Shown in pieces: positions 3,922 through 63,774 of a stretch of 64,000 bases of DNA; within the stretch, counting starts at the first letter, position 1, and each line of letters starts with the position of its first letter. Both the position numbers and the translations under genes were made by a program. Origin of the DNA: Clostridium sp. CAG:780 (lineage in GTDB: Bacteria > Bacillota > Clostridia > TANB77 > CAG-508); assembly GCA_000434195.1 (NCBI GenBank), contig HF994452.1, positions 1,829 to 65,828 of the forward strand, given 5' to 3'. The notes beneath the pieces are model-generated. The model saw only the letters and a program-made list of their open reading frames with translations, was not told where the DNA came from and ran no database searches.

Positions 3922-3933
3922 TAGGAGGAAAAA

Positions 3934-5733: not shown

Positions 5734-5758
5734 GGAATAGAGAATAAAGGGAGAAAAT

Positions 5759-5953: not shown

Positions 5954-5955
5954 AA

Positions 5956-6984: not shown

Positions 6985-6997
6985 AGTAGAGGTTAGA

Positions 6998-7948: not shown

Positions 7949-7960
7949 AAGGAGATTAAG

Positions 7961-8914
7961 ATGCCAAAAGTAAGCATTATAGTTCCAATTTATAATGTGG
8001 AAGAATATTTAGAAAGATGCATAAATTCACTTATAGGACAAACATTAGAAGATATACAGATAATATTAGTAAATGATGGTTCGACAGATAAATCGGGAGA
8101 GATAGCAAAAGGGTATGCATCTAAATATAAAGAAAAAATTATGTATTTAGAAAAAACGAATGGAGGCCTTTCGGATGCTAGAAACTATGGACTTCCTTAT
8201 GCAACAGGAGAATATATAGCATTTCTGGATTCTGATGACTACATAGAAAAAGAAGCATATCAAGAAATGTATGAAAAAGCAAAACAAGAAAATGCTGATT
8301 TTGTGGAATGTGATTTTTTGTGGGAATATCCTGATAAAATAAAAAAGGATAAAAGATATGAATATAAGAACAAAAAAGAAATGCTGGCATTTGTGAGAGT
8401 TGTAGCATGGAATAAATTAATAAAAAATGAAGTGATAGAAAAAAACAAATTAGAATTTCCAAAGGGATTACGTTATGAAGATATAGAATTTACATATAAA
8501 ATGATACCACATTTAACTAAAACTGCGTACGTGGACAAATGCTTTGTTCATTATGTACAAAGAGATAATTCAATAGCTAATGTTCAAAACTCAAGAACAG
8601 CTGAGATATTCACTATATTAGATGATGTTATAAAATATTATAAAGAAAATGGATTTTATGAAGAATATAAAGCAGAGTTAGAATACAATTATGCTAGATA
8701 TTTGCTATGCAGTTCATTAAAAAGAATCTGCAAAGTTCAAGACAAGGTAACCCGAAAAAAATTAATAAATGAAACTTGGAATAAACTAAATTCGGAATTC
8801 CCGAACTGGAAGAAAAACAAGATATTAAATACTGTAAATATCGGAAAAAACAAATACATGAGGACAATAAATAAATTTACATACAAGATATATGCAACAA
8901 TATTTAGCATATAG
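7961..8914 (+). CDS. glycosyltransferase family 2 (tandem paralog of 6998..7948)
   Basis: VSIIVPIYNVEEYLERC, LVNDGSTDKS and LDSDDYI. The N-terminal half is very similar to the preceding gene. Confidence 0.8.
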   Translation: MPKVSIIVPIYNVEEYLERCINSLIGQTLEDIQIILVNDGSTDKSGEIAKGYASKYKEKIMYLEKTNGGLSDARNYGLPYATGEYIAFLDSDDYIEKEAYQEMYEKAKQENADFVECDFLWEYPDKIKKDKRYEYKNKKEMLAFVRVVAWNKLIKNEVIEKNKLEFPKGLRYEDIEFTYKMIPHLTKTAYVDKCFVHYVQRDNSIANVQNSRTAEIFTILDDVIKYYKENGFYEEYKAELEYNYARYLLCSSLKRICKVQDKVTRKKLINETWNKLNSEFPNWKKNKILNTVNIGKNKYMRTINKFTYKIYATIFSI

Positions 8915-8926
8915 AAAGGGAGTATA

Positions 8927-10720: not shown

Positions 10721-11621
10721 GGAATTAACGATTGAAAAAGTAATAAAAGATTTTAGAAAAGAATTACCGGAAGCAGATATCTATGTATATAATAACAATT
10801 CAAAAGATAGAACTAAAGAAATAGCTATCAAAAATGGCGCAATAGTTGTAGATGAATATAAGCAAGGAAAAGGCAATGTCGTAAGAAGCCAATTTAGAGA
10901 TATCGAAGCTGATATATATGTAATGGTGGATGGAGATGATACGTATCCAGCTGAATTTGTACACCAATTAATTGAGCCTGTAAGAAATGGACAAGCTGAC
11001 ATGACAATAGGAGATAGACTTTCAAACGGAACATATCAAAAAGAGAATAAAAGACCATTCCATGAATTTGGAAATAATTTAGTAAAAAAGGCAATAAATG
11101 TACTATTTGATACGAAACTTAAAGATATAATGACAGGCTATAGAGTGTTTAACAAAAGGTTTGTAAAAAATATGCCGGTTCTAAGTCCAAAATTTGAGAT
11201 AGAAACAGAAATGTCTTTATATGCATTGGATAAAAAATATATAATTAAAGAGATTCCAATTGTGTATAGAGATAGACCAGAAGGAAGCTCTTCAAAGCTA
11301 AATACAGTTGGAGATGGAATAAAGGTTGTAAAAACAATAGCAAGAATGTTTAAAGACTATAAGCCATTTAAATTCTTTGGATTAATAGCTCTAATCTTAT
11401 TTATTATAGGATTAGCAATAGGCATTCCGGTATTAGTAGAATTCTTCAAAACAGCATATATTACTAAAGTCCCATCTGCAATACTTGCAACTGGATTTAT
11501 GGGATTAGCAGCTGTGTCTTTACAATGTGGAATTGTATTAGATACTATTACTAGACAGCATAAAGAAGATTATGAACTAAACCTTTTGAGATATGAACAA
11601 ATAGAAAAACTAAAAAAGTAA
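10683..11621 (+). CDS. GT2 polyprenyl-phosphate glycosyltransferase (GtrB/CsbB-like)
   Basis: IAVLIPCYNEE and VDGDDTYP, plus a C-terminal pair of TM helices (FFGLIALILFIIGLAIGIPVLV...), as in GtrB/CsbB-type enzymes. Confidence 0.7.
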   Translation: MEKIAVLIPCYNEELTIEKVIKDFRKELPEADIYVYNNNSKDRTKEIAIKNGAIVVDEYKQGKGNVVRSQFRDIEADIYVMVDGDDTYPAEFVHQLIEPVRNGQADMTIGDRLSNGTYQKENKRPFHEFGNNLVKKAINVLFDTKLKDIMTGYRVFNKRFVKNMPVLSPKFEIETEMSLYALDKKYIIKEIPIVYRDRPEGSSSKLNTVGDGIKVVKTIARMFKDYKPFKFFGLIALILFIIGLAIGIPVLVEFFKTAYITKVPSAILATGFMGLAAVSLQCGIVLDTITRQHKEDYELNLLRYEQIEKLKK

Positions 11622-37545: not shown

Positions 37546-37773
37546 ATGCCTAGAAGAAGAAACTTAAGAATGGAAACATATAACAAGTTAATAAGTATTG
37601 GAAAATCAACAGAAAAAGATATTTTAAATTTAAAAATAGAAGATTTAAAAGAAATAACGAAAGATCCTGATGTTTTGAATATTATTGCTTTACGAGAGTT
37701 TATTAAAGACCATAATACAATAGGGTATTTCAATTATCAAGAAACGAGAAAGGAGGAAACCGATGGCGAATAA
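37546..37773 (+). CDS. hypothetical small protein
   Basis: 75-aa ORF with gggagg upstream. Its end overlaps the start of the polyvalent ORF by 11 nt. Confidence 0.5.
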   Translation: MPRRRNLRMETYNKLISIGKSTEKDILNLKIEDLKEITKDPDVLNIIALREFIKDHNTIGYFNYQETRKEETDGE

Positions 37774-40700
37774 ATATCAACTAATAAATGAAATGGCAAG
37801 TGAAACATTGAAAGAAATTACTCAAAATGGAGAAAGTTGGATTAAGTTTTTAAATACGGCGAGTAACAATTACAAATATTCTTTTAATGAGCAAGTGTTA
37901 ATATATGCTCAAAAACCAAATGCTACTGCTTGTGCAGATATAGAAACTTGGAATAAAAAATTACGAAGATGGGTTAATAAGGGTGCAAAAGGTATTGCCT
38001 TATTATCAATGGAAAATGGCAGAAATGTATTAAGACATGTTTTTGATATTTCAGATACACATAGTGGTATAAATAAAGATTTTAAGTTATGGGAAATAAA
38101 ACCTTCTTATGAAAATGGAATTATAGAAACATTAGAAAATAGTTTTGGAAATTTAGAAGTTAAATCTAATTTAGCAGAAGCAATATATTCAGCATCTATA
38201 AATTTAGTTGAAGATAATTATCAAGATTATTTAGTTGATTTAAAAGAAGTTTTAGATGGTAGCTTATTAGAGGGAATGCAAGATATAGATTTAGAGGGAA
38301 ACTTTATTGTATTACTTGCAAAATCAATATCATATATGGCAATGAAAAGATGTGGCATTGATCCAACAGAACATTTTAATGTATCGGATTTTGAAATGAT
38401 TAGTAGTTTTAATAATAAAAGAGTTGTTTCAAGATTAGGTGCAGCAATAAGTGATATTGCAGAACAAGAATTAAGAGAAATCTATTCTAGTGTTATAAAT
38501 TATGAAAAAAATTATAAATTAACAAATCGTACATTTGTTAATAATGAAAAAATAAATTATCATAATAATGAAGAAAAAAATAATGAAGGGAGAAATGATT
38601 ATGATAGAATTAACATACAATCAAATGGGAGATTACCAAATACCACAAGTAGCATTACCAAAAACGAAGAAAATGGCACAGGGGAGATTCTCAAGAATGA
38701 GGGAGAAATTCCTAAAAGAACACAAAAGAGGGTTATACGAGGAATTAATGTTAGATGGCAAGATGGAAGAACATTTAGGAGAAATAGAGCAAACAGCCCA
38801 AAAGAGAATGAAACAGATAATAACAAGTCTAGCAGAGAAGAATCAAATAACAGAGGAAATGAAAAGAGAGAATCAAATGAGTTGGGTACAAGCAATGAAC
38901 TCAATAAAGAACCAAGTCGAAGAAATGATAATGTCAGAGCTAATTTACAATTAAATCTTTTTGAAGATACCTATGTACCACCAATTAAAGAGTTACCAAG
39001 TGTAGATACACAAATAAATAATATTCAAGCACAAGAAGAAGTAGAAAATACTTCTGCTTTTGAATTTACACAAAAGGTAATAGATGATGTTCTTTTAGAG
39101 GGTAGTCATTTTGCTGATGGAAAATTTAGAATTTATAGATTATTCCAAGAAAGTTATTCTACTGAAGATAACATTACTTTTCTTAAAAAAGAATATGGCG
39201 AGGGTGGTGGAGGTGTAAGAAATTACGAAAATTTAGACGAATGGCATAATGCAAAAGGGATTAGACTAACATTCGGACTAAAAGAAAATGCACCAGAAAC
39301 TTTGATAACATGGAGTAAGGTTGAAAAAAGAATAAAAGAATTAGTAAATGCTGATATTTATCTTAATAGTAATGAAAAAGAAGAATATCAAAAATGGCTT
39401 AATGAGGAATATGAAAATCAAAAATGGATGTATGATGCAAGAATAAATACAGATCAAAAACAAGTAGCTATTGATGAAGAAAATCAAGATATTCAAAATA
39501 TAGAAAAGAATTATAAATTATCTAATGGCAATTATTTTCACTTCCATACTAATGATGAGGGGTATTATTATGCGATTTATAATAACTTTGGAACAGAAAT
39601 AGATGGTGGATTGCTAGAATATTCCGAAATAGATAATACAAAACAATCTGAACTAGATATAAGAAAAAGACTTGCTGAATTTACAGACATAGAAGAATTA
39701 GCAAATGAAAATCTAAGAGAAGTAAGTCAAGAATTTATTGATGCTTTAGAATCTGGAGCTATTGCAGAAGAGGTTGGAAATGCTGTTTTAGAAAAAGTAG
39801 AAAATGACACAATAAATGCAATAGACGAGTTAAAAGCAATTGGACAAGCACAAAAAGTAATCAATTTATTTAAAGCCAGAGAAGAAAATGGAAAGCCACT
39901 TAATAGAGATGAATATTATAAAAATCAAGAAAAAATAAACTATCATATTGATAACAATTCTTTAGGAGAGGGAACTCAAAAAGAAAAAGTAAGAAAAAAT
40001 ATAGAGGCAATAAAACTTTTACATAAGTTAGAAGATGAAAATAGACTAGCAAATAAAGAAGAACAAGAAATTTTATCGAAATATGTTGGTTGGGGTGGAC
40101 TTCCAGATGTATTTGATGAAAATAAAGATAACTGGAGTAAAGAATATAACGAGCTAAAAGAAATACTTACAGATGAAGAATATAAGTCTGCAAGAGCTTC
40201 TACTTTAACTGCTTTTTATACACCACCAGTAGTTATAAATGCAATATATGACACTCTAAAAAGCATGGGTGTTGAACAAGCAAATATTCTTGAACCAAGT
40301 TGTGGTACAGGAAATTTTTTAGGAATGTTGCCACAAGAAATGCAAAGCTCAAAACTATATGGAGTAGAACTTGATTCCATAAGTGGTAAGATAGCAAAAC
40401 AATTATATCAAAAAGCAAATATTAAAGTTCAAGGTTATGAAAAAGCAGATTTACCAGACTCGTTTTTTGATATAGCAATAGGAAATGTGCCATTTGGAGA
40501 TTTCAAAGTTAATGATAAAAGATATGATAAAAATAATTTTCTAATACACGATTATTTCTTTGCTAAAACTTTAGATAAAGTTAGACCAGGAGGAGTAATT
40601 GCATTTATTACTTCAAAAGGAACAATGGATAAAGCAAGTCCAGAGGTTAGAAAGTATTTAGCACAAAGAGCAGACCTTTTAGGTGCTATTAGATTACCAG

Positions 40701-43700
40701 ATAATACTTTTACAAAGAATGCAGGAACAAAAGTAACATCAGATATTATCTTCTTACAAAAAAGAGAAAATTTGACTGATATAATGCCAGATTGGGTATA
40801 TCTTGATAGAGATGAAAACAATATTACAATGAATAAATATTTTGTAGATAATCCAGATATGATATTAGGAAAAATGGAAATGGTATCTACTGCTTATGGC
40901 TATGATTCAACTTGTAAAGCAGAAGAAGACACAAATTTAGAAGAACAATTAAATTATGCGATAACTAATATACATGGAGAATTACAGAATAATAGTATTG
41001 AAAATGAAATTGAACAAGAAGACACATCAATACCTGCAATTCCAACTGTTAAGAATTATTCTTATGCAATAGTAGATGATAAATTGTATTTTAGAGAAAA
41101 TTCAAAAATGATATTACAAGATGAGTTACCTTTAACGGCACAAAATAGAATAAAAGGCTTAATTTTGTTAAGAGAACAAGTAAGAGAACTAATTGATTTC
41201 CAAATGGAAGATTATTCAGATGAGAAAATTCATATTGCACAAGCAAAATTAAATGAATTATATGATAAATTTACAAAAGAATATGGCTTAATAAATTCAA
41301 GAGCAAATGAAACGGCATTTTCTAATGATAGTAGTTATTTCTTATTATGCTCACTTGAAAAAATAGATGGAGAGGGTAAATTTGTAGGAAAAGCTGATAT
41401 ATTTAGTAAAAGAACTATAAAGGCTAAAAAGAAAGTATTACAAGTAGATACACCAGATGAAGCACTAATTTTATCTATTCAAGATAAAGCAAAAGTTGAT
41501 TTAGACTATATGCAGCAATTATGCAATATGGATAAAGAAGAAATAATAAATAGTTTAGAGGGTGTTATTTTTAGAGTTCCTGATTATGAAAATACAAACA
41601 ATTGGGTAACTGCTGATGAATATTTATCTGGTAATGTTAGAGAAAAACTAAAAGTTGCAGAACAATTTGCAAAAGAAGATTCTAGTTTTAATATAAATGT
41701 TGAAAAATTAAAAGAGGTTATTCCAAAAGACCTTACTGCAAGTGAAATTGGAATTAAGTTAGGCTCAACATGGATACCTCCAGAAATCATTAGAAAGTTT
41801 ATTTTTGAATTATTAGATACACCAAGTTATAACAGATGGGATATTCATGTTAAATATTCTAATATAACTGCTGAATGGTATATTGATGGAAAAAGTAATG
41901 ATAGAAACAATGTAAAAGCATATACAACTTATGGTACATCAAGAATAAATGCATATAAAATAATAGAACAGACACTTAATCTAAAAGATGTAAAAATATT
42001 TGATACATTTATAGATGATGAGGGCAGAAAACAAAGAGTATTAAACAGAAAAGAAACTGCAATAGCTTGTAGTAAACAAGACGCAATAAAAGAAGCATTC
42101 TTAAATTGGGTATGGGAAGATCCAGAAAGAAGAAATCATTTAGTAAGACTTTATAATGATAAATTTAATTGCATAAGACCAAGAGAATATGATGGCTCTC
42201 ATATAGGTTTTGTAGGAATGAATCCAGAGATAAAATTAAGGACACATCAACTTAATGCAGTAGCACATGTTTTATATGGTAATAACACATTATTAGCACA
42301 TGAAGTAGGTGCAGGAAAGACTTTTGAGATGGTTGCAGCTGCAATGGAAAGTAAGCGTTTAGGCTTATGTAATAAGTCTTTATTTGTAGTTCCAAATCAT
42401 ATTATAGAGCAGTTTGCAAGTGAGTTTTTGCAACTTTATCCAAGTGCCAATATTTTAGTTGCTACTAAAAAAGACTTTGAAACCAAAAATAGAAAGAAAT
42501 TTTGTAGTAGGATAGCAACAGGAGAATTTGATGCAGTAATTATTGGACATTCACAATTTGAAAGAATACCAATGTCAATAGAAAGACAAATTGCATCATT
42601 AGAAGAACAAATAAGTGATATTACAAAAGGAATTGCCTCTGAAAAATCAAACAGAGGAGAAAACTATACTATTAAACAAATGGAGAAAACAAGAAAATCA
42701 TTAGAAACTAGATTAGAGAAATTACATAAGGAAGAAAGAAAAGATGATGTTGTAACATTTGAAGAATTAGGTGTAGATAAATTATTTGTTGATGAAGCTC
42801 ATAATTATAAGAATTTGTTTTTATATACGAAAATGCGTAATGTAGGTGGAATAGCACAAACTGAAGCACAAAAATCTTCCGACCTTTTTATGAAATGTAG
42901 ATATTTAGATGAAATTACAGGAGGCAAAGGTTCTGTATTTGCTACTGGAACACCAGTAAGTAACTCAATGGCAGAACTTTATACAATGCAGAGATATTTA
43001 CAATATTCTGGACTAAAAGAAAATAGTTTAGAACATTTTGATAATTGGGCAAGTACATTTGGAGAAACAGTTACTGCAATAGAACTTGCACCAGAGGGTA
43101 CAGGATATAGAGCAAAAACAAGATTTGCAAAATTTCACAATTTACCAGAGCTAATGTCTATGTTTAAAGAAGTAGCAGATATTCAAACTGCTGAAACATT
43201 AAATTTACCAACACCAGAATTTGAAAATATAAATGTAGTTGTAAAACCAAGTGAAATACAGCAAGAAATGGTTAAGGCTTTAGGAGAAAGAGCAGAGAAA
43301 ATAAGGTCAGGAACAGTTGATGCAACAGAAGATAATATGCTTAAAATTACAAATGAGGGTAGAAAACTTGCACTAGACCAACGACTTATGAATCCTTTAT
43401 TACCAGATTCAGAAAGTAGTAAAGTAAATTCATGTGCAGAAAATGTTTATAGAATATGGAATGAAAATAGTGATAAGAAATCAACGCAACTTGTATTTTG
43501 TGATTTATCAACACCAAAAGACTTAAAAGGCTATGAAAAAGAAGAATTTACAGATGTATATAATGAGTTAAAGAAAAAGCTAATTCAAAAAGGTATTCCA
43601 CCTGATGAAATAGCTTTTATTCATGAGGCAGATAATGAGGTTAAAAAGAAAGAATTATTTAGTAAAGTAAGAAAAGGACAAGTTAGAGTGTTAATGGGTT

Positions 43701-44725
43701 CAACTCAAAAAATGGGTGCAGGTACTAATGTTCAAGATAAGTTAATTGCAACTCATCATTTAGATTGTGCATGGAAACCTTCTGATTTGACTCAACGAAA
43801 TGGAAGAATGATTAGACAGGGGAATGAAAACAAAAAAGTATATGTATATTCGTATGTTACTGAAAAGACATTTGATAGTTATATGTATCAATTAGTAGAG
43901 CAAAAGCAAAAATTCATTTCTCAAATAATGACATCAAAAACACCTGCAAGAACAATGGAAGATATTGATGACAAAGCATTAACTTATGGAGAAATAAAAG
44001 CATTAGCAACAGGAAATCCTAAAATATTAGAAAAGACATCGTTAGATACTGATGTAGCAAAATTAAAACTATTAAAACAAGAATTTATGAATCAAAAATA
44101 TTCATTGCAAGATAAGATTATAAAATACTTTCCAGAAGAAATAGCAAGACTTAATAATAAAATTGGAGCAATGGAAGAAGATATTATTAAATTACAAGAA
44201 TACACTAGACCCAATGCAGATGGATTTTCTCCTATGAAAATAAATGGAATAACTTATACTGAAAAACAAGAGGCTGGAAAGAAACTATTAGAGAGTATTC
44301 AAAATTTAAAAAGTATTGAAACACGAGAAATAGGAGAATATAGAGGATTTACAATGGAGATGAGTTTCGATTCAATAACTAGAAATATTAGATTAAAACT
44401 AAAAAATAAATTTAGATATTCTATTGATTTAGGAACTGATGTAAATGGAAATATAACAAGAATAAATAATTGTTTAGAGAATATTGCAAAAGATATTCCT
44501 CACGAAAGAGATTTATTAGATAATACATATTTTCAATTAGAAAATGCAAAACAAGAATCTCAAAAGGAATTTCCTAAAGAACAAGAATTACAAGAAAAGT
44601 TACGAAAACTAGAAGAAATAAATGCAGAATTAAAAATAAATGAAAATGAACATGAAATGTTAGGAGATGAAAAGGAAGAAAAACAAGATAAATCTCCTGA
44701 TAAAAATTCTCCAGAAAGATTGTAA
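37763..44725 (+). CDS. polyvalent conjugative-element protein: ArdC-N-like ssDNA-binding domain + N6-adenine DNA methyltransferase + SNF2/DEAH helicase (DarB-like)
   Basis: N-terminus: NEQVLIYAQKPNATACADIETWNKKLRRWVNKGAKGIALL (ArdC-N pattern). Methylase: LEPSCGTGNFLG and GNVPFGD. Helicase: HEVGAGKTF, VDEAHNYKN and QRNGRMIRQGN. Confidence 0.8.
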   Translation: MANKYQLINEMASETLKEITQNGESWIKFLNTASNNYKYSFNEQVLIYAQKPNATACADIETWNKKLRRWVNKGAKGIALLSMENGRNVLRHVFDISDTHSGINKDFKLWEIKPSYENGIIETLENSFGNLEVKSNLAEAIYSASINLVEDNYQDYLVDLKEVLDGSLLEGMQDIDLEGNFIVLLAKSISYMAMKRCGIDPTEHFNVSDFEMISSFNNKRVVSRLGAAISDIAEQELREIYSSVINYEKNYKLTNRTFVNNEKINYHNNEEKNNEGRNDYDRINIQSNGRLPNTTSSITKNEENGTGEILKNEGEIPKRTQKRVIRGINVRWQDGRTFRRNRANSPKENETDNNKSSREESNNRGNEKRESNELGTSNELNKEPSRRNDNVRANLQLNLFEDTYVPPIKELPSVDTQINNIQAQEEVENTSAFEFTQKVIDDVLLEGSHFADGKFRIYRLFQESYSTEDNITFLKKEYGEGGGGVRNYENLDEWHNAKGIRLTFGLKENAPETLITWSKVEKRIKELVNADIYLNSNEKEEYQKWLNEEYENQKWMYDARINTDQKQVAIDEENQDIQNIEKNYKLSNGNYFHFHTNDEGYYYAIYNNFGTEIDGGLLEYSEIDNTKQSELDIRKRLAEFTDIEELANENLREVSQEFIDALESGAIAEEVGNAVLEKVENDTINAIDELKAIGQAQKVINLFKAREENGKPLNRDEYYKNQEKINYHIDNNSLGEGTQKEKVRKNIEAIKLLHKLEDENRLANKEEQEILSKYVGWGGLPDVFDENKDNWSKEYNELKEILTDEEYKSARASTLTAFYTPPVVINAIYDTLKSMGVEQANILEPSCGTGNFLGMLPQEMQSSKLYGVELDSISGKIAKQLYQKANIKVQGYEKADLPDSFFDIAIGNVPFGDFKVNDKRYDKNNFLIHDYFFAKTLDKVRPGGVIAFITSKGTMDKASPEVRKYLAQRADLLGAIRLPDNTFTKNAGTKVTSDIIFLQKRENLTDIMPDWVYLDRDENNITMNKYFVDNPDMILGKMEMVSTAYGYDSTCKAEEDTNLEEQLNYAITNIHGELQNNSIENEIEQEDTSIPAIPTVKNYSYAIVDDKLYFRENSKMILQDELPLTAQNRIKGLILLREQVRELIDFQMEDYSDEKIHIAQAKLNELYDKFTKEYGLINSRANETAFSNDSSYFLLCSLEKIDGEGKFVGKADIFSKRTIKAKKKVLQVDTPDEALILSIQDKAKVDLDYMQQLCNMDKEEIINSLEGVIFRVPDYENTNNWVTADEYLSGNVREKLKVAEQFAKEDSSFNINVEKLKEVIPKDLTASEIGIKLGSTWIPPEIIRKFIFELLDTPSYNRWDIHVKYSNITAEWYIDGKSNDRNNVKAYTTYGTSRINAYKIIEQTLNLKDVKIFDTFIDDEGRKQRVLNRKETAIACSKQDAIKEAFLNWVWEDPERRNHLVRLYNDKFNCIRPREYDGSHIGFVGMNPEIKLRTHQLNAVAHVLYGNNTLLAHEVGAGKTFEMVAAAMESKRLGLCNKSLFVVPNHIIEQFASEFLQLYPSANILVATKKDFETKNRKKFCSRIATGEFDAVIIGHSQFERIPMSIERQIASLEEQISDITKGIASEKSNRGENYTIKQMEKTRKSLETRLEKLHKEERKDDVVTFEELGVDKLFVDEAHNYKNLFLYTKMRNVGGIAQTEAQKSSDLFMKCRYLDEITGGKGSVFATGTPVSNSMAELYTMQRYLQYSGLKENSLEHFDNWASTFGETVTAIELAPEGTGYRAKTRFAKFHNLPELMSMFKEVADIQTAETLNLPTPEFENINVVVKPSEIQQEMVKALGERAEKIRSGTVDATEDNMLKITNEGRKLALDQRLMNPLLPDSESSKVNSCAENVYRIWNENSDKKSTQLVFCDLSTPKDLKGYEKEEFTDVYNELKKKLIQKGIPPDEIAFIHEADNEVKKKELFSKVRKGQVRVLMGSTQKMGAGTNVQDKLIATHHLDCAWKPSDLTQRNGRMIRQGNENKKVYVYSYVTEKTFDSYMYQLVEQKQKFISQIMTSKTPARTMEDIDDKALTYGEIKALATGNPKILEKTSLDTDVAKLKLLKQEFMNQKYSLQDKIIKYFPEEIARLNNKIGAMEEDIIKLQEYTRPNADGFSPMKINGITYTEKQEAGKKLLESIQNLKSIETREIGEYRGFTMEMSFDSITRNIRLKLKNKFRYSIDLGTDVNGNITRINNCLENIAKDIPHERDLLDNTYFQLENAKQESQKEFPKEQELQEKLRKLEEINAELKINENEHEMLGDEKEEKQDKSPDKNSPERL
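38601..38954 (+). CDS. tnpV: TnpV-like protein encoded in an alternative frame inside the polyvalent ORF
   Basis: The ORF track gives 38568..38954. AAGGGAG (38586-38592) lies 8 nt before ATG 38601. Product: MIELTYNQMGDYQIP...GRFSRMREKFLKEHKRGLY...ENQMSWVQAMNSIKNQVEEMIMSELIYN, which matches my recollection of TnpV family length and motifs. Confidence 0.55.
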   Translation: MIELTYNQMGDYQIPQVALPKTKKMAQGRFSRMREKFLKEHKRGLYEELMLDGKMEEHLGEIEQTAQKRMKQIITSLAEKNQITEEMKRENQMSWVQAMNSIKNQVEEMIMSELIYN

Positions 44726-44748
44726 AAAAATTAAATTTATGCTATAAT
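44720..44748 (+). promoter_or_regulatory. sigma-A promoter TTGTAA-17-TGcTATAAT for the erm-like gene
   Basis: TTGTAA at 44720-44725 contains the stop of the upstream ORF. TATAAT at 44743-44748 with a TG extended -10. Confidence 0.6.
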
Positions 44749-44784
44749 GATTTCATCAAATAGTAATTTGTAAAGGAGGTATTT

Positions 44785-45699
44785 ATGGGAATAGAACATT
44801 CGCAAAATTATTTACATAGTAAACAACTTGTAGCGACTTTGTTATCAAAGAGTAATATTTGTAACGACGATATTATAATTGAGATAGGTCCTGGAAAAGG
44901 AATTATTACCATTGAACTTGCAAAAAAAAGCAAGCAAGTTATAGCAATAGAGTTTGATGCGAAATTAGCGAAAACTTTATCTGAAAAGTATAAAGAATCT
45001 AAAAAAGTTCAAATAATAGAGATGGATTTTTTAAAATATAAAATATCAGTAAAAGAACCATATAAAGTATGTGCAAATATTCCATTTAACATAACTGCTG
45101 ATATTGTGAAAAAGGTATTTGAAGCCGATAATCCTCCTGAAGATATATATTTCATAATGCAGTATGAGGCTTTTCTCAGGTATTCTGGACAGCCCTTTTA
45201 TAACGAAAGTTTGAGGTCTCTTTTATACAAACCTTGGTTTTCCGCTGAATTGATTTATGAGTTTAAACCATCAGATTTTTATCCTGTGCCAAATGCACGA
45301 ATATGTTTTGCTCACTTTCAAAGAAAAACATCTGCTGATGTTGAGGATGCGATAGACTATAGAAATTTTCTGTCATATATATTTTTAGCATCTGGAAATA
45401 CTTTCAAAGATAAAACAAAAAAATTGTTTACTTATGAGCAACAAAAACGCATTTGCAAGTTTTTAAAAATTAAATTAGAGTCAACGCTTACTGAAATCTC
45501 ATACGATGGATGGCTGTACCTATATGATGTTTTTCTTAAATTTGTTTCCAACGAAAAAAAAGCTATTATATTAAATGCTGAACAAGACATGAAAAACAAT
45601 CAAAACAAGATTCAAAAAAAACATCGAAATCGTAATCATGGTTATTGGAAATTTGAAGCTAAGCGCCAAAAAAAATTAAAATTTGAAAATGGAAAATAA
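44785..45699 (+). CDS. erm: Erm-family 23S rRNA (adenine-N6)-methyltransferase, divergent, with a basic C-terminal extension
   Basis: HSQNYLHS, IIEIGPGKGIITIELAKKSKQVIAIEFD, YKVCANIPFNITADIVKK and DFYPVPN align in order with the ErmB motifs as I remember them. Confidence 0.7.
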   Translation: MGIEHSQNYLHSKQLVATLLSKSNICNDDIIIEIGPGKGIITIELAKKSKQVIAIEFDAKLAKTLSEKYKESKKVQIIEMDFLKYKISVKEPYKVCANIPFNITADIVKKVFEADNPPEDIYFIMQYEAFLRYSGQPFYNESLRSLLYKPWFSAELIYEFKPSDFYPVPNARICFAHFQRKTSADVEDAIDYRNFLSYIFLASGNTFKDKTKKLFTYEQQKRICKFLKIKLESTLTEISYDGWLYLYDVFLKFVSNEKKAIILNAEQDMKNNQNKIQKKHRNRNHGYWKFEAKRQKKLKFENGK

Positions 45700-45842
45700 G
45701 AATTTTATCAGTAGCTATATTTCAAATTTCTATATTATTAGCAATAGTGTAAACAAAAAAGTTGACAGAAAAAAGTAATAAGTAAATCATAAATTACAAT
45801 TTAGTGATTTGTTAGATAAATAGTAATTTGTAGGGAGGAACA

Positions 45843-47327
45843 ATGTCTTTAATAAGTGTAAATAATTTGACTTTTGGATATGATGGAAGTTTTAATAATA
45901 TATTTGAAAATGTTTCATTTAATATAGATACAGATTGGAAATTAGGACTAATAGGTAGAAATGGTAAAGGAAAAACTACATTTTTAAAGCTATTACAGGG
46001 AAAATATGAATATAGAGGAACAATATCAAAAAGTGTAGATGTTGATTATTTTCCTTTTGAAGTAACTAATAAAAATAGAATGTCAATAGAGATAGTAAAT
46101 GAAATTGCTCCAAATGTTGAGGATTGGGAAATTATAAAAGAATTGAATTTATTAAATAGTGATATAGAAATTCTTTATAGAAATTTTAATTTATTAAGTG
46201 GTGGAGAACAAATAAAAATACTTTTAATTAGCTTATTTTTAAAAGGAAATAATTTCTTGCTTATAGATGAGCCTACAAACCATTTGGACATAGAAACAAG
46301 AAATAATTTAGTTGATTATTTGGAAAAGAAAAAAGGTTTTATATTAGTATCTCACGATAGAATTTTTTTAGATAAAGTTGTAAATCATATTATTTCTATA
46401 AATAACACTAATATTGAAATACAGCAGGGTAATTTTTCATCTTGGAAAGAAAATAAAGACAGACAAGATAATTTTGAAATAATGCAAAATGAAAAATTAC
46501 AAAAAGATATAAATAAACTTGAAATTGCTTCAAAAAATACTGCAAAATGGTCTAATGAGGTTGAAAAGTCAAAATATAAAACAAGCAATTCAGAATCAAA
46601 GATAGACAGAGGTTACCTAGGACATAAGTCTGCTAAAATGATGAAAAAGTCAAAAGTTATGGAAGGGCGAATTGAAAAGGCAATAGATGAAAAAACTAAT
46701 TTATTAAAAAATATAGATAGAAATGATAGTTTAAAAATAATTCCAATAGGAAGTAGAAAAAGTCCATTGATTTTAGCAAATAACTTACAAATAAAATACA
46801 ATGAAAAAATAATATTCTCTCCAGTTTCATTTGAAGTAGAAAATGGAGATAGAATTGCAATAGTTGGAAAAAATGGAATAGGAAAATCAAGTATATTAAA
46901 ATTGATTTTAGGTCAAGAGATACAATATAACGGAGAATTAAAAATAGCAAATGACTTAAAAATATCTTATGTATCACAGAATACAGACTATTTAAAAGGA
47001 AACTTAAAAAACTTTTCACAAGATAATAAAATAGATGAAAGTATTTTTAAAGCAATGTTATCTAAAATGGGATTTTCAAAATTAGATTTTGATACTAAAA
47101 TTGAAGAAATGAGCGAAGGACAGAAAAAGAAAATTTTAATTGCAAAAAGTATATCAGAACAAGCTAATATTTATATATGGGACGAGCCATTGAATTATAT
47201 AGATATACTAACAAGAGAACAAATAGAGGACTCAATCTTAAAATATAATCCAACACTAATCTTTGTTGAACACGATACAACTTTTGTAGAGAAAGTAGCG
47301 ACAAAGATTATAACAATAGAAAAATAA
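45843..47327 (+). CDS. ABC-F ribosomal protection protein, Lsa-like
   Basis: Two ABC cassettes with no TM domain. The N-terminus LTFGYDGS...NIDTDWKLGLIGRNGKGKTTFLKLLQGKYEYRGTI...VDYFPFEV closely follows the Lsa N-terminus pattern. Second Walker A: GKNGIGKSS. Confidence 0.8.
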   Translation: MSLISVNNLTFGYDGSFNNIFENVSFNIDTDWKLGLIGRNGKGKTTFLKLLQGKYEYRGTISKSVDVDYFPFEVTNKNRMSIEIVNEIAPNVEDWEIIKELNLLNSDIEILYRNFNLLSGGEQIKILLISLFLKGNNFLLIDEPTNHLDIETRNNLVDYLEKKKGFILVSHDRIFLDKVVNHIISINNTNIEIQQGNFSSWKENKDRQDNFEIMQNEKLQKDINKLEIASKNTAKWSNEVEKSKYKTSNSESKIDRGYLGHKSAKMMKKSKVMEGRIEKAIDEKTNLLKNIDRNDSLKIIPIGSRKSPLILANNLQIKYNEKIIFSPVSFEVENGDRIAIVGKNGIGKSSILKLILGQEIQYNGELKIANDLKISYVSQNTDYLKGNLKNFSQDNKIDESIFKAMLSKMGFSKLDFDTKIEEMSEGQKKKILIAKSISEQANIYIWDEPLNYIDILTREQIEDSILKYNPTLIFVEHDTTFVEKVATKIITIEK

Positions 47328-47361
47328 GTGTGCGAGAAATTACAAGTTATAGAGTAGTTTT

Positions 47362-47392
47362 AAGAGCGATATTTTAAATATTGCTCTTTTTT
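47362..47392 (+). terminator. rho-independent terminator
   Basis: Stem aagagcgatat/atattgctctt (one G-U pair), followed by a T-run. Confidence 0.7.
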
Positions 47393-47475
47393 CTGTCAAA
47401 TTTATAATTAAATAATTTGCACATTTCTCAAATTCAAAAGATTATATTAGAATAAGTTTGAGGAGGGATAAGGAA

Positions 47476-47781
47476 ATGGAAGAATTATTTAATAGACCTA
47501 TTTTAGATCAACTATATGATTCAATAAGTGATGATTTTGAAACAATGCTATTAAAGAAAAAGAATAGTGATGGGAAATTTACAGAGTCATTAAAAGTAGA
47601 AGAAGAATTAATTTATTTGATAAAAAAATTAGTTAAAGACGAAGAAATATTAGACCAAATAACTAATAAATTAAATAAATTTGAACTCGCTATTGGCAAT
47701 GAAACAGATTTACTTTGTAAACATTATTATAAATTAGGGATAGTTGATAGTAAAAAAATATTGATGGAAATAGGAGAATAA
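47476..47781 (+). CDS. hypothetical small acidic protein
   Basis: ATG 47476 follows aggagg; the ORF track starts at TTG 47458. Confidence 0.5.
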   Translation: MEELFNRPILDQLYDSISDDFETMLLKKKNSDGKFTESLKVEEELIYLIKKLVKDEEILDQITNKLNKFELAIGNETDLLCKHYYKLGIVDSKKILMEIGE

Positions 47782-47785
47782 AGGT

Positions 47786-48118
47786 ATGGAAGAAATCGCA
47801 GGTAGCTTTTTTGATAATTATGAAGAAGGTTTTTTAGAGTATTTAGAAGTTCATAAAGCACAAGCATTAAAAGATAGAGAAGACTATCAAACATTAAATA
47901 AAAAGATATCAGAACTAAAATATAAATACCCAAATGTAAGAACATTTTTAGAAGAAAAAGAACCAATAGATTTAAGAGATGATGAACAATATGCAATACT
48001 TAATGTACTTGATTATGAAACTGAACTTGATGTTATTGAGTTAAAAGAAAGTTTTAAATTAGGTTTTAAAGAAGCATTAATCTACTTAAATAATATGGGA
48101 ATGTTAAAATTAAATTAG
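47786..48118 (+). CDS. hypothetical small acidic protein (distantly similar C-terminus to 47476..47781)
   Basis: 110-aa ORF. FKLGFKEAL here compares with YKLGIVDSK in the upstream ORF. Confidence 0.5.
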   Translation: MEEIAGSFFDNYEEGFLEYLEVHKAQALKDREDYQTLNKKISELKYKYPNVRTFLEEKEPIDLRDDEQYAILNVLDYETELDVIELKESFKLGFKEALIYLNNMGMLKLN

Positions 48119-52177: not shown

Positions 52178-52393
52178 ATGGAAGAAATGAGAACAATTAA
52201 TTTAGATAAATATGATTATCGACTAATATTAAATGCATTAAATGAATTTAGAAATATAAAAATACAAGAAAATGTTGATATAGAAATCATAGATAAGTTA
52301 ATGTCAAAATTGTTAAAAGCCCCTGTAAATAAAAAGATGTTATCTTTAAATAGAACTGCAAAGGGAAAATTTACAAGCAATGAAGCAAGATGA
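52178..52393 (+). CDS. hypothetical small protein upstream of the coupling protein
   Basis: 71-aa ORF with aaggagg upstream. Overlaps the virD4 start. Confidence 0.5.
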   Translation: MEEMRTINLDKYDYRLILNALNEFRNIKIQENVDIEIIDKLMSKLLKAPVNKKMLSLNRTAKGKFTSNEAR

Positions 52394-54210
52394 AAAAAGA
52401 ATAATGAGAGTGTTGTATGTAATAGGAATTATTCCAATTATTTGGATTGCTCTCCTTTTAGCTCCTTATACTAAAGGTGGACTTATAGAAATAATAAAAA
52501 ATGGTAGTGCTGCATTAAATCAGCCATTTAAAATAGTTATTGTAGAGAATAGCATTAGAACTATTCTTATTTTTTTGATTATTTATATATTTTCAATCTT
52601 ATTATATGAATCAACTAGAAAAAATTATAGGAGGAGAGAAGAAAATGGTTCAGCCAAATGGGGCGAGGCAAAGGAATTAAATAAAAAATACAAACAACCT
52701 AATAATTATAATAAATTGCTTACTAAAAATGTTTCTGTTGGATTAAATGGAAGAAAGCATAGAAGAAATGTTAATGTATTAGTTATTGGTGGTTCTGGTG
52801 CAGGAAAGACATTTAGTTATTGTAAGCCAAATGTAATGCAATGTGCAACATCGTATGTTATACTTGATCCAAAAGGAGAAATCGTTAGAGATACAGGTTA
52901 TTTATTAGAAAAAGAACGGATATGAAATCAAAGTATTAGACTTAATAAATATGGAGAAATCACATTGTTATAATCCGTTTGTATATATAAAAACAGATAA
53001 TGATGTTCAAAAATTAGTAACAAATCTTTTTAAATCAACAACACCAAAAGGAAGTAGTACAAACGACCCATTTTGGGATACTGCTGCAAGTATGTTACTT
53101 TTAGCTTTAATATTTTATTTGAAATATGAAGCACCAGAAGAAGAACAAAACTTTGTAATGGTAATGGAATTACTACGAGCAGGAGATGTTAAAGAAGATG
53201 ATGACGAATATGTTAGTCCTCTTGATATGTTATTTAATAGATTAGAAACAAGAAATCCAGAGCATATTGCTTTAAAATATTATAGAGCATATCATTCAGG
53301 TTCAGCTAAAACATTAAAATCAATACAAGTAACTCTTGCTGCAAGACTTGAAAAATTTAATTTAGAGAGTATGGCACAACTTACACAAACAGATGAATTA
53401 GACTTGCCAAGTTTAGGAGAAAAGAAAGTTGCATTATTTGCAATTATTCCAGATAATGATACATCATTTAATTTTTTAGTTAGTGTTTTATATACACAAC
53501 TTTTTCAACAATTATTTTATTTAGCAGATTATAAATATGGTGGCAGTTTACCAATACATGTACATTTTGTTATGGATGAGTTCGCTAATGTAAGTTTACC
53601 AGATGATTTTGATAAAATATTATCAGTAATGAGGTCAAGAGAGGTATCTGTTTCTATAATATTGCAAAATTTAGCACAATTAAAAGCCTTATTTGAAAAA
53701 CAATGGGAATCAATAGTTGGAAATTGTGATGAGTTTTTATATTTAGGTGGTAATGAACAAAGCACCCATAAGTATGTTAGTGAATTATTAGGAAAAGAAA
53801 CAATAGATACAAATACTTATGGTAGGAGTTATGGTTCACATGGCAGTTATTCTACAAATGACCAAATCGCAGGTAGAGAACTATTGACACCAGATGAGGT
53901 AAGAATGCTAGATAATAATTATGCTTTACTTTTTATTAGAGGAGAAAGACCAGTAAAAGATTTCAAATTTAATTTAAAAGAACATTTTAATAGCATAAAT
54001 ACACCTATTGGAAATAAAGAAATAAAACCATATATACATGGAGGAACAGAAAATTCAATAGGTACAATATCATTTAATTTAGATGATATGGAAATTGATA
54101 CAAAAGAAATTATAGATTTAGAAACAAATGAACTTGATGTTGAATTATTATCAAGTGAAGAAATCGAAAATATGTACAAAGAAGATACAAAAAATGCTAA
54201 TAGTATCTAA
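52380..54210 (+). pseudogene. virD4: VirD4/TraG-type coupling protein, split by a frameshift at the A5 run 52909-52913
   Basis: ENGSAKWG...VLVIGGSGAGKTF...YVILDPKGE...GYLLEK ends at 52925. The next frame is open from 52909 and reads KKNGYEIKVLDLINMEKSHCYNPFVYI. Removing one A gives GYLLEKNGYEIKVLD. Confidence 0.8.
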
Positions 54211-60910: not shown

Positions 60911-60968
60911 AAATAGTATCAAGTAAGGTATATAAAACTTTGCTTGATACTATTTATTTTTTTGCTTT
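60911..60968 (+). terminator. rho-independent terminator
   Basis: 13-bp perfect stem aaatagtatcaag/cttgatactattt, followed by a T-rich tail. Confidence 0.75.
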
Positions 60969-61003
60969 TTTATGATACAATGCAAAAAATCAAGGAGGAA
61001 TAT

Positions 61004-61747
61004 ATGTTAGATAATATAGAAGTTTTATATCATAGCAGTATAAGAATTAACAAAGAAAAAATAATTTATATAGATCCATTTAAAATAGATAGAAATTTTA
61101 ATGATGCAGATATTATTTTTATAACACACGACCACTATGACCATTATTCTGAAGAAGATATAGAGAAGGTTATAAATGAAAACACAACTATTATAATACC
61201 AGAAGATAATGATGCAGATATTGTTTTTATAACACACGATCATTATGACCATTATTCTGAAGAAGATATAGATAAGGTTATAAATGAAAACACAACTATT
61301 ATAATACCAGAAGAATTATTAACAAAACTGTTAAGAAAAGGCATAAATAAAAATGCAATTATTACAGTAGAGCCAAACAAAGAATATGTGGTAGAAGGAA
61401 TTAAATTTAAAACAATACCAGCATATAATACAAACAAAACATTCCATCCAAAAGGAAACGATTGGGTTGGCTACATTATTACAATAAATAATATTAGATA
61501 TTATATTGCAGGAGATACAGACATTACAGAAGAAAATAAAAAAGTAAAATGTGATGTTGCTTTTGTTCCAGTTGGAGGAACATATACAATGGATTTCAAA
61601 GAGGCAGCACAATTAATCAACGAAATACAACCTAAAATAGCAATCCCAATTCATTATGGTAGTGTAGTTGGAACAAACCAAGATGCTACAGATTTTGTGA
61701 AATTATTGAATCCAAGTATAAAAGGTATAATTTTAATGAAACAATAA
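61004..61747 (+). CDS. MBL-fold metallo-hydrolase carrying an internal 36-codon duplication
   Basis: ITHDHYDH (HxHxDH) occurs twice. AGDTD and PVGGTYTM...PIHYG are typical of small MBL-fold hydrolases. ATG 61004 has AAGGAGG upstream; the ORF track starts at 60944, inside the terminator. Confidence 0.7.
   Translation: MLDNIEVLYHSSIRINKEKIIYIDPFKIDRNFNDADIIFITHDHYDHYSEEDIEKVINENTTIIIPEDNDADIVFITHDHYDHYSEEDIDKVINENTTIIIPEELLTKLLRKGINKNAIITVEPNKEYVVEGIKFKTIPAYNTNKTFHPKGNDWVGYIITINNIRYYIAGDTDITEENKKVKCDVAFVPVGGTYTMDFKEAAQLINEIQPKIAIPIHYGSVVGTNQDATDFVKLLNPSIKGIILMKQ
61100..61315 (+). repeat. 2 x 108-bp in-frame tandem duplication
   Basis: 61100-61207 versus 61208-61315 differ at five positions by my alignment. 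Confidence 0.9.
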
Positions 61748-62280: not shown

Positions 62281-62316
62281 AAAGAAAATAGTAAGTTGTC
62301 AAGGAGAAATATAGTT

Positions 62317-62943
62317 ATGGAATTTAGCAAAAAAATACAAGAATTAAGAAATAAAAATAAATTAACACAAGAACAATTTGCAGAAAAATTATATGTATCA
62401 CGAACTGCAGTATCAAAATGGGAAAGTGGGAAAGGTTATCCTAGCATTGATTCATTAAAATATATATCAAAAATATTTAATGTTTCAATTGATGAACTAT
62501 TATCAAATGAAGAAATAATAGATATTGCTAAAAATGAAAATACTTCTAACATTGAAAAAATAAATAATTTAGTATATGGATTACTTGATATAATGATTAT
62601 TTTATTTATCTTTTTACCACTTTATGGACAAAAAATTGGAGAAAAATTTTATACAGTATCTTTAATTAGTTGTACTGATATAGGAAATACTATAAAAACA
62701 ATATACTTTATTACTTTGATTTTTATATCTATAATTGGAATTGTAGAAATTGTATATAATTTTATAGATGACAAGAAAATACGAATTATAGTTAATATTG
62801 TTTCACTTATTATTCAAACAATTGCAATATTATTTTTTGTAATGACAAGACAACCTTATGCAACATCAATAATGTTTATGATATTGATTATAAAAATGTC
62901 ATTGATAATTAAAGATAATTTTAATAAGAAAAAAGTATTATGA
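62317..62943 (+). CDS. membrane-bound XRE-family HTH regulator (BcrR-like architecture)
   Basis: N-terminus IQELRNKNKLTQEQFAEKLYVSRTAVSKWESGKGYPSIDSL (HTH_XRE), followed by four hydrophobic helices. ATG 62317 is preferred over TTG 62296. Confidence 0.65.
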   Translation: MEFSKKIQELRNKNKLTQEQFAEKLYVSRTAVSKWESGKGYPSIDSLKYISKIFNVSIDELLSNEEIIDIAKNENTSNIEKINNLVYGLLDIMIILFIFLPLYGQKIGEKFYTVSLISCTDIGNTIKTIYFITLIFISIIGIVEIVYNFIDDKKIRIIVNIVSLIIQTIAILFFVMTRQPYATSIMFMILIIKMSLIIKDNFNKKKVL

Positions 62944-63071
62944 GTGCCTAAAAATAGGCAGTGTTACTAAAAGTGTCAAACAAATATATATGTAGTGAGA
63001 GAAAGTTTCTTGATAGATATAAAATTTCATAATAAACTAAAAATGGGCTTACCCAGAAAGGAGTATTTATT

Positions 63072-63728
63072 ATGAACAACAAAAAAAGAAATTTTCTCAT
63101 TAGTGGAATTTTGCTTTTAATAGCAATAACTTTTACAATATTAGTCAAAGTAGTAGATGTAAAACAAATTGGAGTAAACAATTCTAGTATAGGGTTTGCG
63201 ACTTTAAATCAATTTATTTTTGAAACTACAGGAGTAAATATGATTTGGTATCACATTACTGATTGGTTAGGATTAATTCCTGTTTTTATGGCTATAGTGT
63301 ATGCTTTTATAGGGCTTATCCAATTCATAAAAAGAAGAAGTATATTTAAAGTCGATAAAGAGATTATACTATTAGGACTATATTATATTATTGTAATAGC
63401 TTTATATGTATTCTTTGAAAAAGTAATTATTAATTATAGACCAATATTAATGAATGGCTTTTTAGAAGCATCTTACCCATCATCTCATACATTGATGACA
63501 ATTTGCATTTGTGGAAGTTCTATTTTAATCAATAAAAAGTTATTTAATAATAAAATAACAAAAGTTATTAATTATTTATCAATTATTATAATTACAATAA
63601 CTGTTGTTGGAAGATTAATATCAGGTGTTCATTGGTTTACTGATATTATAGGTGGCATACTTATATCAAGTGGTTTATTAATGACTTTTTATTCTTTATT
63701 AAGTATAATAAACAAAGAAAATTATTAG
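63072..63728 (+). CDS. PAP2-family phosphatase (candidate undecaprenyl-pyrophosphate phosphatase)
   Basis: YPSSHT and SGVHWFTD motifs of the PAP2 superfamily. Polytopic. Confidence 0.7.
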   Translation: MNNKKRNFLISGILLLIAITFTILVKVVDVKQIGVNNSSIGFATLNQFIFETTGVNMIWYHITDWLGLIPVFMAIVYAFIGLIQFIKRRSIFKVDKEIILLGLYYIIVIALYVFFEKVIINYRPILMNGFLEASYPSSHTLMTICICGSSILINKKLFNNKITKVINYLSIIIITITVVGRLISGVHWFTDIIGGILISSGLLMTFYSLLSIINKENY

Positions 63729-63774
63729 TACAAATTACAATTTTATAGTTATTGATTTATAGTAATTTACCGAA

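Follow-up and report, generated by a model that had tools for sequence, protein, structure and literature searches.

Adjacent erm-like and lsa-like genes of Clostridium sp. CAG:780 as two probable resistance cassettes stacked in one promoter-to-terminator slot of a conjugative element

The attC site of integrons is an imperfect palindrome of 57-141 bp which folds and carries R'', L'', L' and R' boxes, and the pdif (XerC/D) sites of Acinetobacter plasmids are 28 bp long, with an 11-6-11 structure and alternating orientation. In IS110/IS621 elements, the target-binding loop of a bridge RNA matches the target site. To our knowledge, Gram-positive anaerobes have no classical integrons. Here we analysed a 64,000-nucleotide stretch of Clostridium sp. 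CAG:780 (contig HF994452.1, positions 1,829 to 65,828), referred to as the window, at which an erm-like methylase gene (44785..45699, 304 aa) is followed by a gene for an Lsa-like antibiotic resistance (ARE) ABC-F ribosomal protection protein (45843..47327, 494 aa). Both open reading frames (ORFs) start with ATG and lie on the + strand, as do the cassette sites, the linker, the promoter-like sites and the terminator located below. An earlier note on this DNA had described the pair as one two-gene cassette. We consider it probable, at roughly 75%, that they are instead two independent promoterless single-gene resistance cassettes, stacked in one promoter-to-terminator slot of a conjugative element.

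A 21-nt motif (AAATAGTAATTTGTARRGAGG), which had been overlooked before, lies 5′ of both genes, with 2 matches in the window against 0.09 expected. The erm cassette has its 5′ junction site, AAATAGT/AATTTGT (the slash marks the boundary), at 44758..44771, of which the left part belongs to the platform, so that the cassette runs from ~44765; its 3′ end site, AAATTAC/AA, is at 45791..45799. The ABC-F cassette shows the same 5′ junction site at 45818..45831 and the same 3′ end site at 47337..47345, after which platform sequence (GTTATAGAG) follows. Between the two cassettes there is a 25-nt linker (TTTAGTGATTTGTTAGATAAATAGT, 45800..45824) that ends as an AAATAGT-type left arm. A promoter-like site, TTGTAA-17-TATAAT with a TG extension (TGCTATAAT, 44720..44748), stands outside the erm cassette, and an intrinsic-terminator-like hairpin of 12 pairs with a T-run (47362..47388), contained in neither cassette, closes the expression platform.

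We compared the loci encoding the Erm protein, 78 from metagenomes and 62 from genomes (L numbers below denote single loci). Homology of the erm region to L001, L003 and many other loci begins at 44757-44758, and the cassette starts as ...AAATAGT/AATTTGTAAAGGAGG in 57 distinct upstream contexts. The upstream arm is AAATAGTAA in 49 of these, the exceptions being AACTAGTAA, TACGAGTAA and AAATCGGAA, and the junction in L072 reads AAATCGG/AATTTGT. At the other end, homology stops at the 3′ end site (...ATAAATTAC/AA) in 36 distinct downstream contexts, with AATTT next in 27 and AAGTT in 5. In case of the ABC-F gene, homology to L002 begins at 45819 and ten more contexts agree; every mobile ABC-F allele ends with ...AAATTAC/AA, whereas the chromosomal relatives do not. 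The site has the form AAAT-WRY/AA-KTT-RT (pattern AAATWRYAAKTTRT) and measures ~14-16 bp, gene cassettes ending with AAATTAC, and platforms and linkers with AAATAGT.

Each of the two genes also occurs without the other. The erm segment (44758-45803) recurs at 98-100% identity without ABC-F (BLASTN; L001 and L003), and the ABC-F segment (45819-47345) recurs at 99.9% without erm, at another position of a related element (L002). Among the 49 distinct upstream contexts that could be judged, erm stands alone in 25, is followed by ABC-F in 18 and occurs in both states in 6. The exact window ABC-F protein is indexed in 6370 collection blocks, and the 10 places sampled from these all had the allele without an upstream erm. 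In L013, a window-type element with erm only, position 45803 is joined to 47337 and 45804-47345 is precisely absent. The terminator at 47362-47388 follows erm alone in this locus and other cassette sets in L153, L157 and L161; it is part of the host platform and not of either gene. The separate ends, the solo occurrences and L013 thus argue for two independent cassettes stacked in one slot. In L001, two erm cassettes that are 98% identical (4763-5674 and 10001-10915) lie 4.3 kb apart and flank Mob_Pre relaxase and HicB-like genes.

The same ends are not restricted to these two genes. A motif census gave 23 candidate gene families with the same ends, ~20 of which are unrelated to erm or ABC-F and some of which are presumably not genuine; unambiguous examples include a streptomycin adenylyltransferase (Pfam Adenyl_transf, ant(6)), a 640-aa tet ribosomal-protection gene, small membrane proteins and a helix-turn-helix (HTH) protein. 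One cassette for a 158-aa membrane protein has four different partners upstream, each ending with AAATTACAA, and starts with TATGG directly after it; the boundary is therefore at or just after AAATTACAA. Its 3′ conserved element starts right at the stop codon (TAAGAAATTACAA), and the 3′ conserved element of the cassettes in general is only ~9-12 nt. Arrays of at least five cassettes exist, for example in L131, a circular long-read chromosome, and the downstream end of an array is often a terminator or a terminal site that is seen repeatedly. The same boundaries are present in chromosomes assembled with hifiasm and metaFlye and in the isolate Anaerofustis butyriciformans HA2171.

Multi-resistance arrays with AAATTAC-type ends were seen in L019 (for example 2391-9680), L155, L158 and L002, and contain a PadR-like gene with the 640-aa tet ribosomal-protection gene, erm, ABC-F and the ant(6)-like streptomycin adenylyltransferase gene. 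A gene-less linker of ~25-27 nt, AA[T/G]TTAGT[G/A]ATT[T/A]GTTAGA[T/A]AAATAGT, was found between cassettes in the window (45800-45824) and in L153, L154, L157, L020 and L065. The window linker precedes the same ABC-F gene after a different gene in L153 and L158, and precedes other genes in L020 and L065. Its start resembles the 5′ end of a cassette and its end resembles a platform site.

Under the nomenclature for macrolide-lincosamide-streptogramin (MLS) resistance genes, a shared class name requires 80% amino-acid identity. The methylase matched Pfam PF00398 (RrnaAD) with 148.8 bits over residues 5-249, and scored 268.8 bits with the NCBIfam model of Erm(42) and 135.7 with that of ksgA, the latter not reaching its cutoff of 171. 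Its top matches in PDB were ErmAM (1YUB) and ErmC', above all KsgA/Dim1 structures. No grouping with KsgA/Dim1 was found, in line with the Erm family membership that had been proposed for it. It had also been called divergent, and the identities bear this out: 67.1% to Erm(53), the nearest named protein, 46.8% to Erm(42) and ~30% to Erm(B) (tblastn), with no named Erm class at 80% identity or more as of the databases' dates. The Prokaryotic Genome Annotation Pipeline (PGAP) gives a 96% identical relative only the generic name "rRNA adenine N(6)-methyltransferase family protein". By sequence, the methylase is a member of the Erm(42)/Erm(53) clade that would count as a new erm class by the 80% rule.

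In the alignment of this clade (A1), the S-adenosylmethionine (SAM)-binding GxGxG motif, EIGPGKG, and the NIPF motif are invariant. The basic C-terminal tail, at which the protein ends with KKHRNRNHGYWKFEAKRQKKLKFENGK, had been regarded as unusual, but its segment Q..K..HRNRN is invariant or nearly so among ten clade members, including Erm(53), down to 42% identity. It is a feature of the Erm(42)/Erm(53) clade, and variation among the tails is confined to the last ~8 residues. Where the window (45664-45699) encodes an Erm ending with KKLKFENGK (304 aa), L133 (10880-10912) has KKIFKLKN (303 aa), owing to a one-base length change in an A-run; as the end differs between the two forms, the extreme C-terminus appears dispensable. 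The enzyme is predicted to methylate N6 of A2058 in 23S rRNA, which would weaken the binding of macrolides, lincosamides and streptogramin B. Erm(42) is described, in the citing text of PMC6028734, as an A2058 monomethyltransferase (Desmolaize et al. 2011). By analogy with Erm(42) as described there, a weaker type-I phenotype complemented by the ABC-F protein is conceivable.

The ABC-F protein has two ABC_tran stretches, corresponding to two nucleotide-binding domains, and no membrane domain in Pfam. It aligned end-to-end with the Lsa family model NF000167 (705.4 bits, 1-492 of 492) and passed the ribosomal-protection ABC-F equivalog NF000355 (476.9 bits against a cutoff of 380, residues 5-492). 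On the other hand, it stayed far below the cutoffs of the EttA model (212 versus 599, or 806.75 for TIGR03719) and of the Uup model (192 versus 900), and with 216 bits on the CplR model (cutoff 780) it is a distant relative of that protein. The best PDB match was the LsaA-70S complex 7NHK (421 bits, compared with 179 for EttA), and identity to Lsa(E) is 58.1%. These results agree with its earlier description as a divergent Lsa-like protein, and no EttA/Uup grouping was found. A search of a phage collection returned only a distant lsa(E)-like match. From its sequence, the protein would work like Lsa and yet is not a named member, and by the 80% rule it would form a new class. We predict that it occupies the ribosomal E site and dislodges lincosamides, streptogramin A and pleuromutilins from the peptidyl-transferase centre, as LsaA does.

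The window ABC-F belongs to a clostridial clade with chromosomal and mobile members of 82-85% identity. In L008-L011 (for example L008:5900-7520), an 85% identical ABC-F gene was observed in a conserved chromosomal neighbourhood (MatE, ThiF, YebC and the spoIIIA operon), without cassette motifs. Between the chromosomal relatives and the cassette, homology covers just the region bounded by the Shine-Dalgarno sequence and the stop codon, and the 85% relative looks, as far as its sequence can tell, like the type of gene from which the cassette was captured. In L062 (1370-2854), a mosaic ABC-F gene consists of the 82% allele in its first third and of the window allele in the remainder, which indicates homologous recombination between cassette alleles.

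The earlier note had also claimed that the two genes lack attenuator leaders, with an erm leader of about 36 nt. The -10 element of the platform promoter indeed ends 36 nt before the erm ATG. The erm cassette itself contributes only ~20-27 nt before the ATG in all 57 distinct contexts; therefore, an attenuator is not part of erm anywhere among them. A TGnTATAAT sequence lies at most 70 nt upstream in 39 of the 57. The 143-nt spacer between erm and ABC-F (45700-45842) contains no ATG, no start or upstream ORF preceded by a Shine-Dalgarno sequence and no terminator-like site, and its folding is no better than that of shuffled sequences (z = +0.82). A scan of 44400-47800 against Rfam, with E-values up to 10, returned only a CRISPR repeat and a snoRNA at chance level, and no leader family. 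The spacer, the Rfam scan, the folding and the 57 contexts thus all agree with the claim. The erm gene has a Shine-Dalgarno sequence AGGAGG at 44774-44779 and the ABC-F gene GGGAGG at 45833-45838. The chromosomal 85% relative of the ABC-F gene has a TGgTATTAT promoter and a leader of ~30 nt.

Since no leader peptide or attenuator signals were detected, constitutive expression is the best inference, and both genes are probably co-transcribed constitutively from the platform promoter at 44720-44748. A second promoter-like site, TTGACA-17-AATCAT (45762..45790), lies in the 3′ tail of the erm cassette, faces the ABC-F gene and is kept in all erm cassette copies. Perhaps it assists transcription of the ABC-F gene, and termination would take place at 47362-47388. 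The predicted actions of the two proteins overlap on lincosamides and would jointly cover macrolides, streptogramins A and B, and pleuromutilins. A synergy between an ABC-F factor and an Erm methylase had been mentioned in the earlier note, and precedent exists: in Clostridioides difficile 630, CplR and Erm(B) together give high lincosamide resistance (PMC10201436). By analogy with this pair, resistance should become both broader and higher when the two proteins act together.

A 1.6-kb element encoding a 401-aa protein with DEDD_Tnp_IS110 and Transposase_20 domains was identified at the exact cassette boundary in six loci (L028:2349-3942, L027, L050, L110, L112 and L145). It is inserted in the form AAATTA-CA-[TGTATAC...TTGACAAAAATTAGATAGT-CA]-ATTTGT, and uninterrupted versions of its flanks are present in L032, L036 and L108. 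The insertions exactly at the boundary mark the junction as a true target of recombination. Inside a stem-closed loop at its left end, the element has AAATTACA and ACAAATTG, the reverse complement of CAATTTGT, which is what the bridge-RNA target loop for AAATTA-CA-ATTTGT is predicted to look like. The right end carries an outward TTGACA, and a second IS110 member adjoins a similar ...GAGAAATCAC site in L152. The insertions are no demonstration that the IS110 enzyme moves the cassettes. We tried a model of simple cassette-circle integration by the observed element and rejected it, given that the core is CA, the donor ends differ and the predicted abutted junctions were not seen.

Judging from their anatomy, the cassettes would be moved by direct-repeat site-to-site recombination at AAAT-WRY/AA-KTT-RT sites. 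Excision would leave one hybrid site and a circle with the palindrome ACAAATT-AC-AATTTGT (ACAAATTACAATTTGT). With no recombinase gene adjacent, the enzyme would act in trans. The site is too small for a classical attC or att site and falls in the size range of RNA-guided IS110 targets, which could point to a recombinase of the RNA-guided IS110/bridge type or to another one supplied in trans. We also considered a serine-recombinase model with AC as the central dinucleotide and rejected it, for left junctions carry GT and right junctions AC, and a single crossover cannot yield both. More broadly, and only as a tentative proposal, the loci may belong to an undescribed integrase-less system of gut Bacillota, in which single genes, cut exactly at the Shine-Dalgarno sequence and at the stop codon, are exchanged among many promoter-to-terminator platforms, and by which erm, lsa-like, ant(6) and tet genes would already be passing between dozens of species in human and livestock guts.

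Several observations weigh against the main reading of two stacked resistance cassettes moved by site-specific recombination. The methylase misses the cutoff of the broad Erm equivalog by 2.3 bits (209.7 versus 212), and the ABC-F protein falls short of the Lsa family cutoff (705.4 versus 750). The 25-nt linker does not fit a simple picture of one site per boundary, unless it is a gene-less segment. When 1383 ORFs from 151 loci were clustered, no recombinase family proved to be recurrent in the 10 kb around the arrays; IS110 transposases and large serine recombinases were each present in only 5-6 of the 151 loci, and the commonest neighbours were conjugation genes. A truly empty platform site was not found, GATTTCATCAAAT N0-12 GTTATAGAGTAG having 0 matches in viral_contigs and AAATAGTAAGTTATAG having 0 in the fetched loci. 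All sites share "AA", so that the position of the crossover cannot be pinned down exactly. Finally, many of the loci come from short-read metagenome assemblies, in which repeat-induced chimeras are possible, though the boundaries of the repeats would stay true.

It is rather unlikely that erm and ABC-F are one evolved two-gene cassette, moving and functioning only as a unit. Part of the earlier claim to this effect stands, as most pairs consist of an 82% ABC-F allele joined to erm (96-99% allele) by a single identical junction, and this block, which recurs in 24 distinct upstream contexts, moves as a unit elsewhere. With all alleles taken together, 26 different downstream contexts were counted for ABC-F cassettes, L114 repeats the window combination as its sole other copy among the loci sampled, and there is no terminator between the genes. 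The window pair, however, does not follow the claim: each gene is bounded by 5′ and 3′ end sites of its own, erm is solo in 25 contexts, all 10 sampled places, as well as L002, have the exact ABC-F allele without erm, L013 misses exactly 45804-47345, and near-identical erm genes are each followed by a different ABC-F allele (82%, 96% mosaic or 100%). We regard it as hardly credible that the two are housekeeping paralogues without a role in resistance, one being a 16S methylase of the KsgA/Dim1 type and the other a translation factor of the EttA/Uup type. The domains given by Pfam (RrnaAD and ABC_tran) and the PGAP name of the 96% Erm relative are only generic, the score is 2 bits below the broad Erm cutoff, and the 85% ABC-F relative is chromosomal, beside sporulation genes. 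Yet the ksgA score of 135.7 is below its cutoff and far under the 268.8 for Erm(42), the EttA and Uup scores are far below their cutoffs, no named proteins are closer than Erm(53), Erm(42) and Lsa(E), and mobile carriage with ant(6) and tet is seen in ~60 species-level genomes at 96-100% identity.

Non-autonomous transposons resembling miniature inverted-repeat transposable elements (MITEs) or mobile insertion cassettes (MICs), with 9-bp terminal inverted repeats (GTAATTTGT...ACAAATTAC) and a DDE transposase acting in trans, would account for the perfect or near-perfect inverted repeats around erm, ABC-F and several other cassettes. This origin is improbable, as target-site duplications were not found, the 158-aa membrane-protein cassette has no left repeat and begins with TATGG directly after AAATTACAA, and L072 retains AATTTGT but has CGG in place of AGT; moreover, the flanks are conserved (AAATAGT on the left and AA[T/G]TT on the right), as site-to-site recombination predicts. 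We rejected the terminal-inverted-repeat model on the missing duplications, the one cassette without a left repeat and the L072 junction. It is very improbable that the sharp ends are assembly artefacts, or products of homologous recombination between common untranslated-region motifs with no dedicated system. Most assemblies are short-read, the multi-copy erm repeat invites chimeric joins and the 5′ motif overlaps the ribosome-binding region; but the boundaries are identical in the hifiasm and metaFlye chromosomes and in A. butyriciformans HA2171, the motifs, at 9-14 nt, do not have the length that RecA-type exchange needs, both ends are common to unrelated genes, and the same site is hit by a site-specific IS110 element whose predicted guide loop matches it.

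The pair lies in a conjugative element, which makes up its surroundings at 30-64 kb of the window and encodes ParA/ParB, an adhesin with SpaA repeats, an SNF2/LPD polyvalent protein, a DUF3991-Toprim protein, a relaxase, a type IV coupling protein (T4CP), VirB4, a sortase and a CHAP hydrolase. The first 29.5 kb are chromosome of an uncultured "Clostridia bacterium" with roughly 28% GC. The polyvalent ORF (37763..44725, 2320 aa) lies directly upstream, its stop codon being 59 nt before the erm ATG. The layout reported earlier, with a 304-aa Erm, a 143-nt gap, a 494-aa ABC-F protein, the flanking polyvalent ORF and terminator, and an enclosing conjugative element, was recovered in every part.

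A second cassette region was observed at 62285-63771. Its junction site AAATAGT/AAGTTGT (62285..62298) is upstream of an HTH-domain gene, which is followed by a PAP2 gene ending with GTACAAATTACAA, by the recurrent terminal array site AAATTACAATTTTATAGTTATTGATTTATAGTAATTTACC (63732..63771) and by a terminator. In L022, L056, L060 and L155, erm, the erm and ABC-F pair or ABC-F alone is located at the exact 62285 point, after a YjbR gene, and an array-ending sequence identical to the 63732-63771 site occurs in L002, L029, L041, L056 and others. The T4CP gene (52380-54210) is split into ORFs of 181 and 419 aa in different frames, with a stop at 52923-52925, which points to a frameshift or pseudogene unless it is a sequencing error; should the split be real, the element may be unable to transfer itself. 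Within a metallo-beta-lactamase-fold gene (60944-61747), a 108-bp tandem duplication (61099-61314; 2.0 copies, 96% match) was noticed, and the homologue in L155 has 211 aa compared with 267 aa in the window.

By homology, both genes are real, unnamed members of the Erm and Lsa-like families, and standard annotation gives them no more than generic labels. The Erm cluster comprises 1693 sequences, and each of the two exact proteins, Erm and ABC-F, is encoded on at least 1000 contigs in public data. Among ~60 species-level genomes from human, mouse, pig and ruminant guts, the erm gene shows 96-100% identity; the hosts are uncultured Clostridia, Clostridium, Lachnospiraceae, Erysipelotrichaceae and "Bacilli" metagenome-assembled genomes, and their samples were from human, mouse, goat, sheep, deer and pig. 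If the genes confer resistance, resistome surveys undercount a major reservoir of macrolide, lincosamide and pleuromutilin resistance in commensals, and leaderless co-expression of a target modifier with a target protector would provide a ready-made determinant of high-level resistance to several drug classes. The cassette architecture, which went unnoticed in the earlier note, is the most interesting content of the window and appears to represent an undescribed cassette system akin to that of integrons and very widespread among gut bacteria. Searching the accessible literature for the cassette motif strings gave only unrelated papers, such as ones on Cas12a crRNA or primers, and no description, which is weak negative evidence only. 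The architecture could make testable the long-standing question of how Gram-positive anaerobes assemble multi-resistance arrays on conjugative elements, and it offers a natural short-site recombination system to look for; the relevant features are the sharp 14-16 bp ends, the exact capture from the Shine-Dalgarno sequence to the stop codon, the dispersed platforms and the bridge-type insertion sequence homing to the same site.

Like the cassettes of integrons, the present ones are promoterless, co-oriented single-gene units with a 3′ site, they depend on a platform promoter, and the same cassette occurs in many arrays. As with the IS1111-attC elements, an IS110-family element specifically targets the cassette site. 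In contrast to integrons, the window-type site has ~14-16 bp and lacks the features of attC, and neither an adjacent intI tyrosine integrase nor attI was found within 10 kb of the arrays. The platforms here are many and dispersed over integrative and conjugative elements (ICEs), mobilisable elements and chromosomes, with terminator-closed arrays and Bacillota hosts. The pdif modules are similar in that resistance genes lie between short sites in many contexts and the recombinase is encoded elsewhere; the present sites differ in being direct repeats, and they appear unlike the Firmicutes dif site.

With Erm(53) and Erm(42), the methylase shares a clade of ~300-aa Erm proteins, the Q..K..HRNRN tail, the GxGxG SAM motif and the NIPF motif, and no attenuator leader was seen upstream of Erm(53) on the Psychrobacter plasmid pWB2 either. 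These relatives have Proteobacteria as hosts, Erm(42) being carried by ICEs of Pasteurellaceae, whereas the hosts here are gut Bacillota; erm(53) is flanked by ISVsa3 copies, with no cassette motifs found there, while the window erm is a short-site cassette. With Lsa(E) and Lsa(A), the ABC-F protein shares the full-length match to the family model and the two nucleotide-binding domains, LsaA being its nearest solved relative, but it is below the Lsa cutoff, unnamed and carried as a single-gene cassette. The pair as a whole resembles CplR with Erm(B) of C. difficile, in which an ARE ABC-F protein and an Erm methylase likewise occur together in a cell. In C. difficile, the chromosomal cplR gene is induced by upstream-ORF-dependent attenuation, and erm is on a separate transposon (PMC10201436), whereas the window genes are adjacent, leaderless and mobile.

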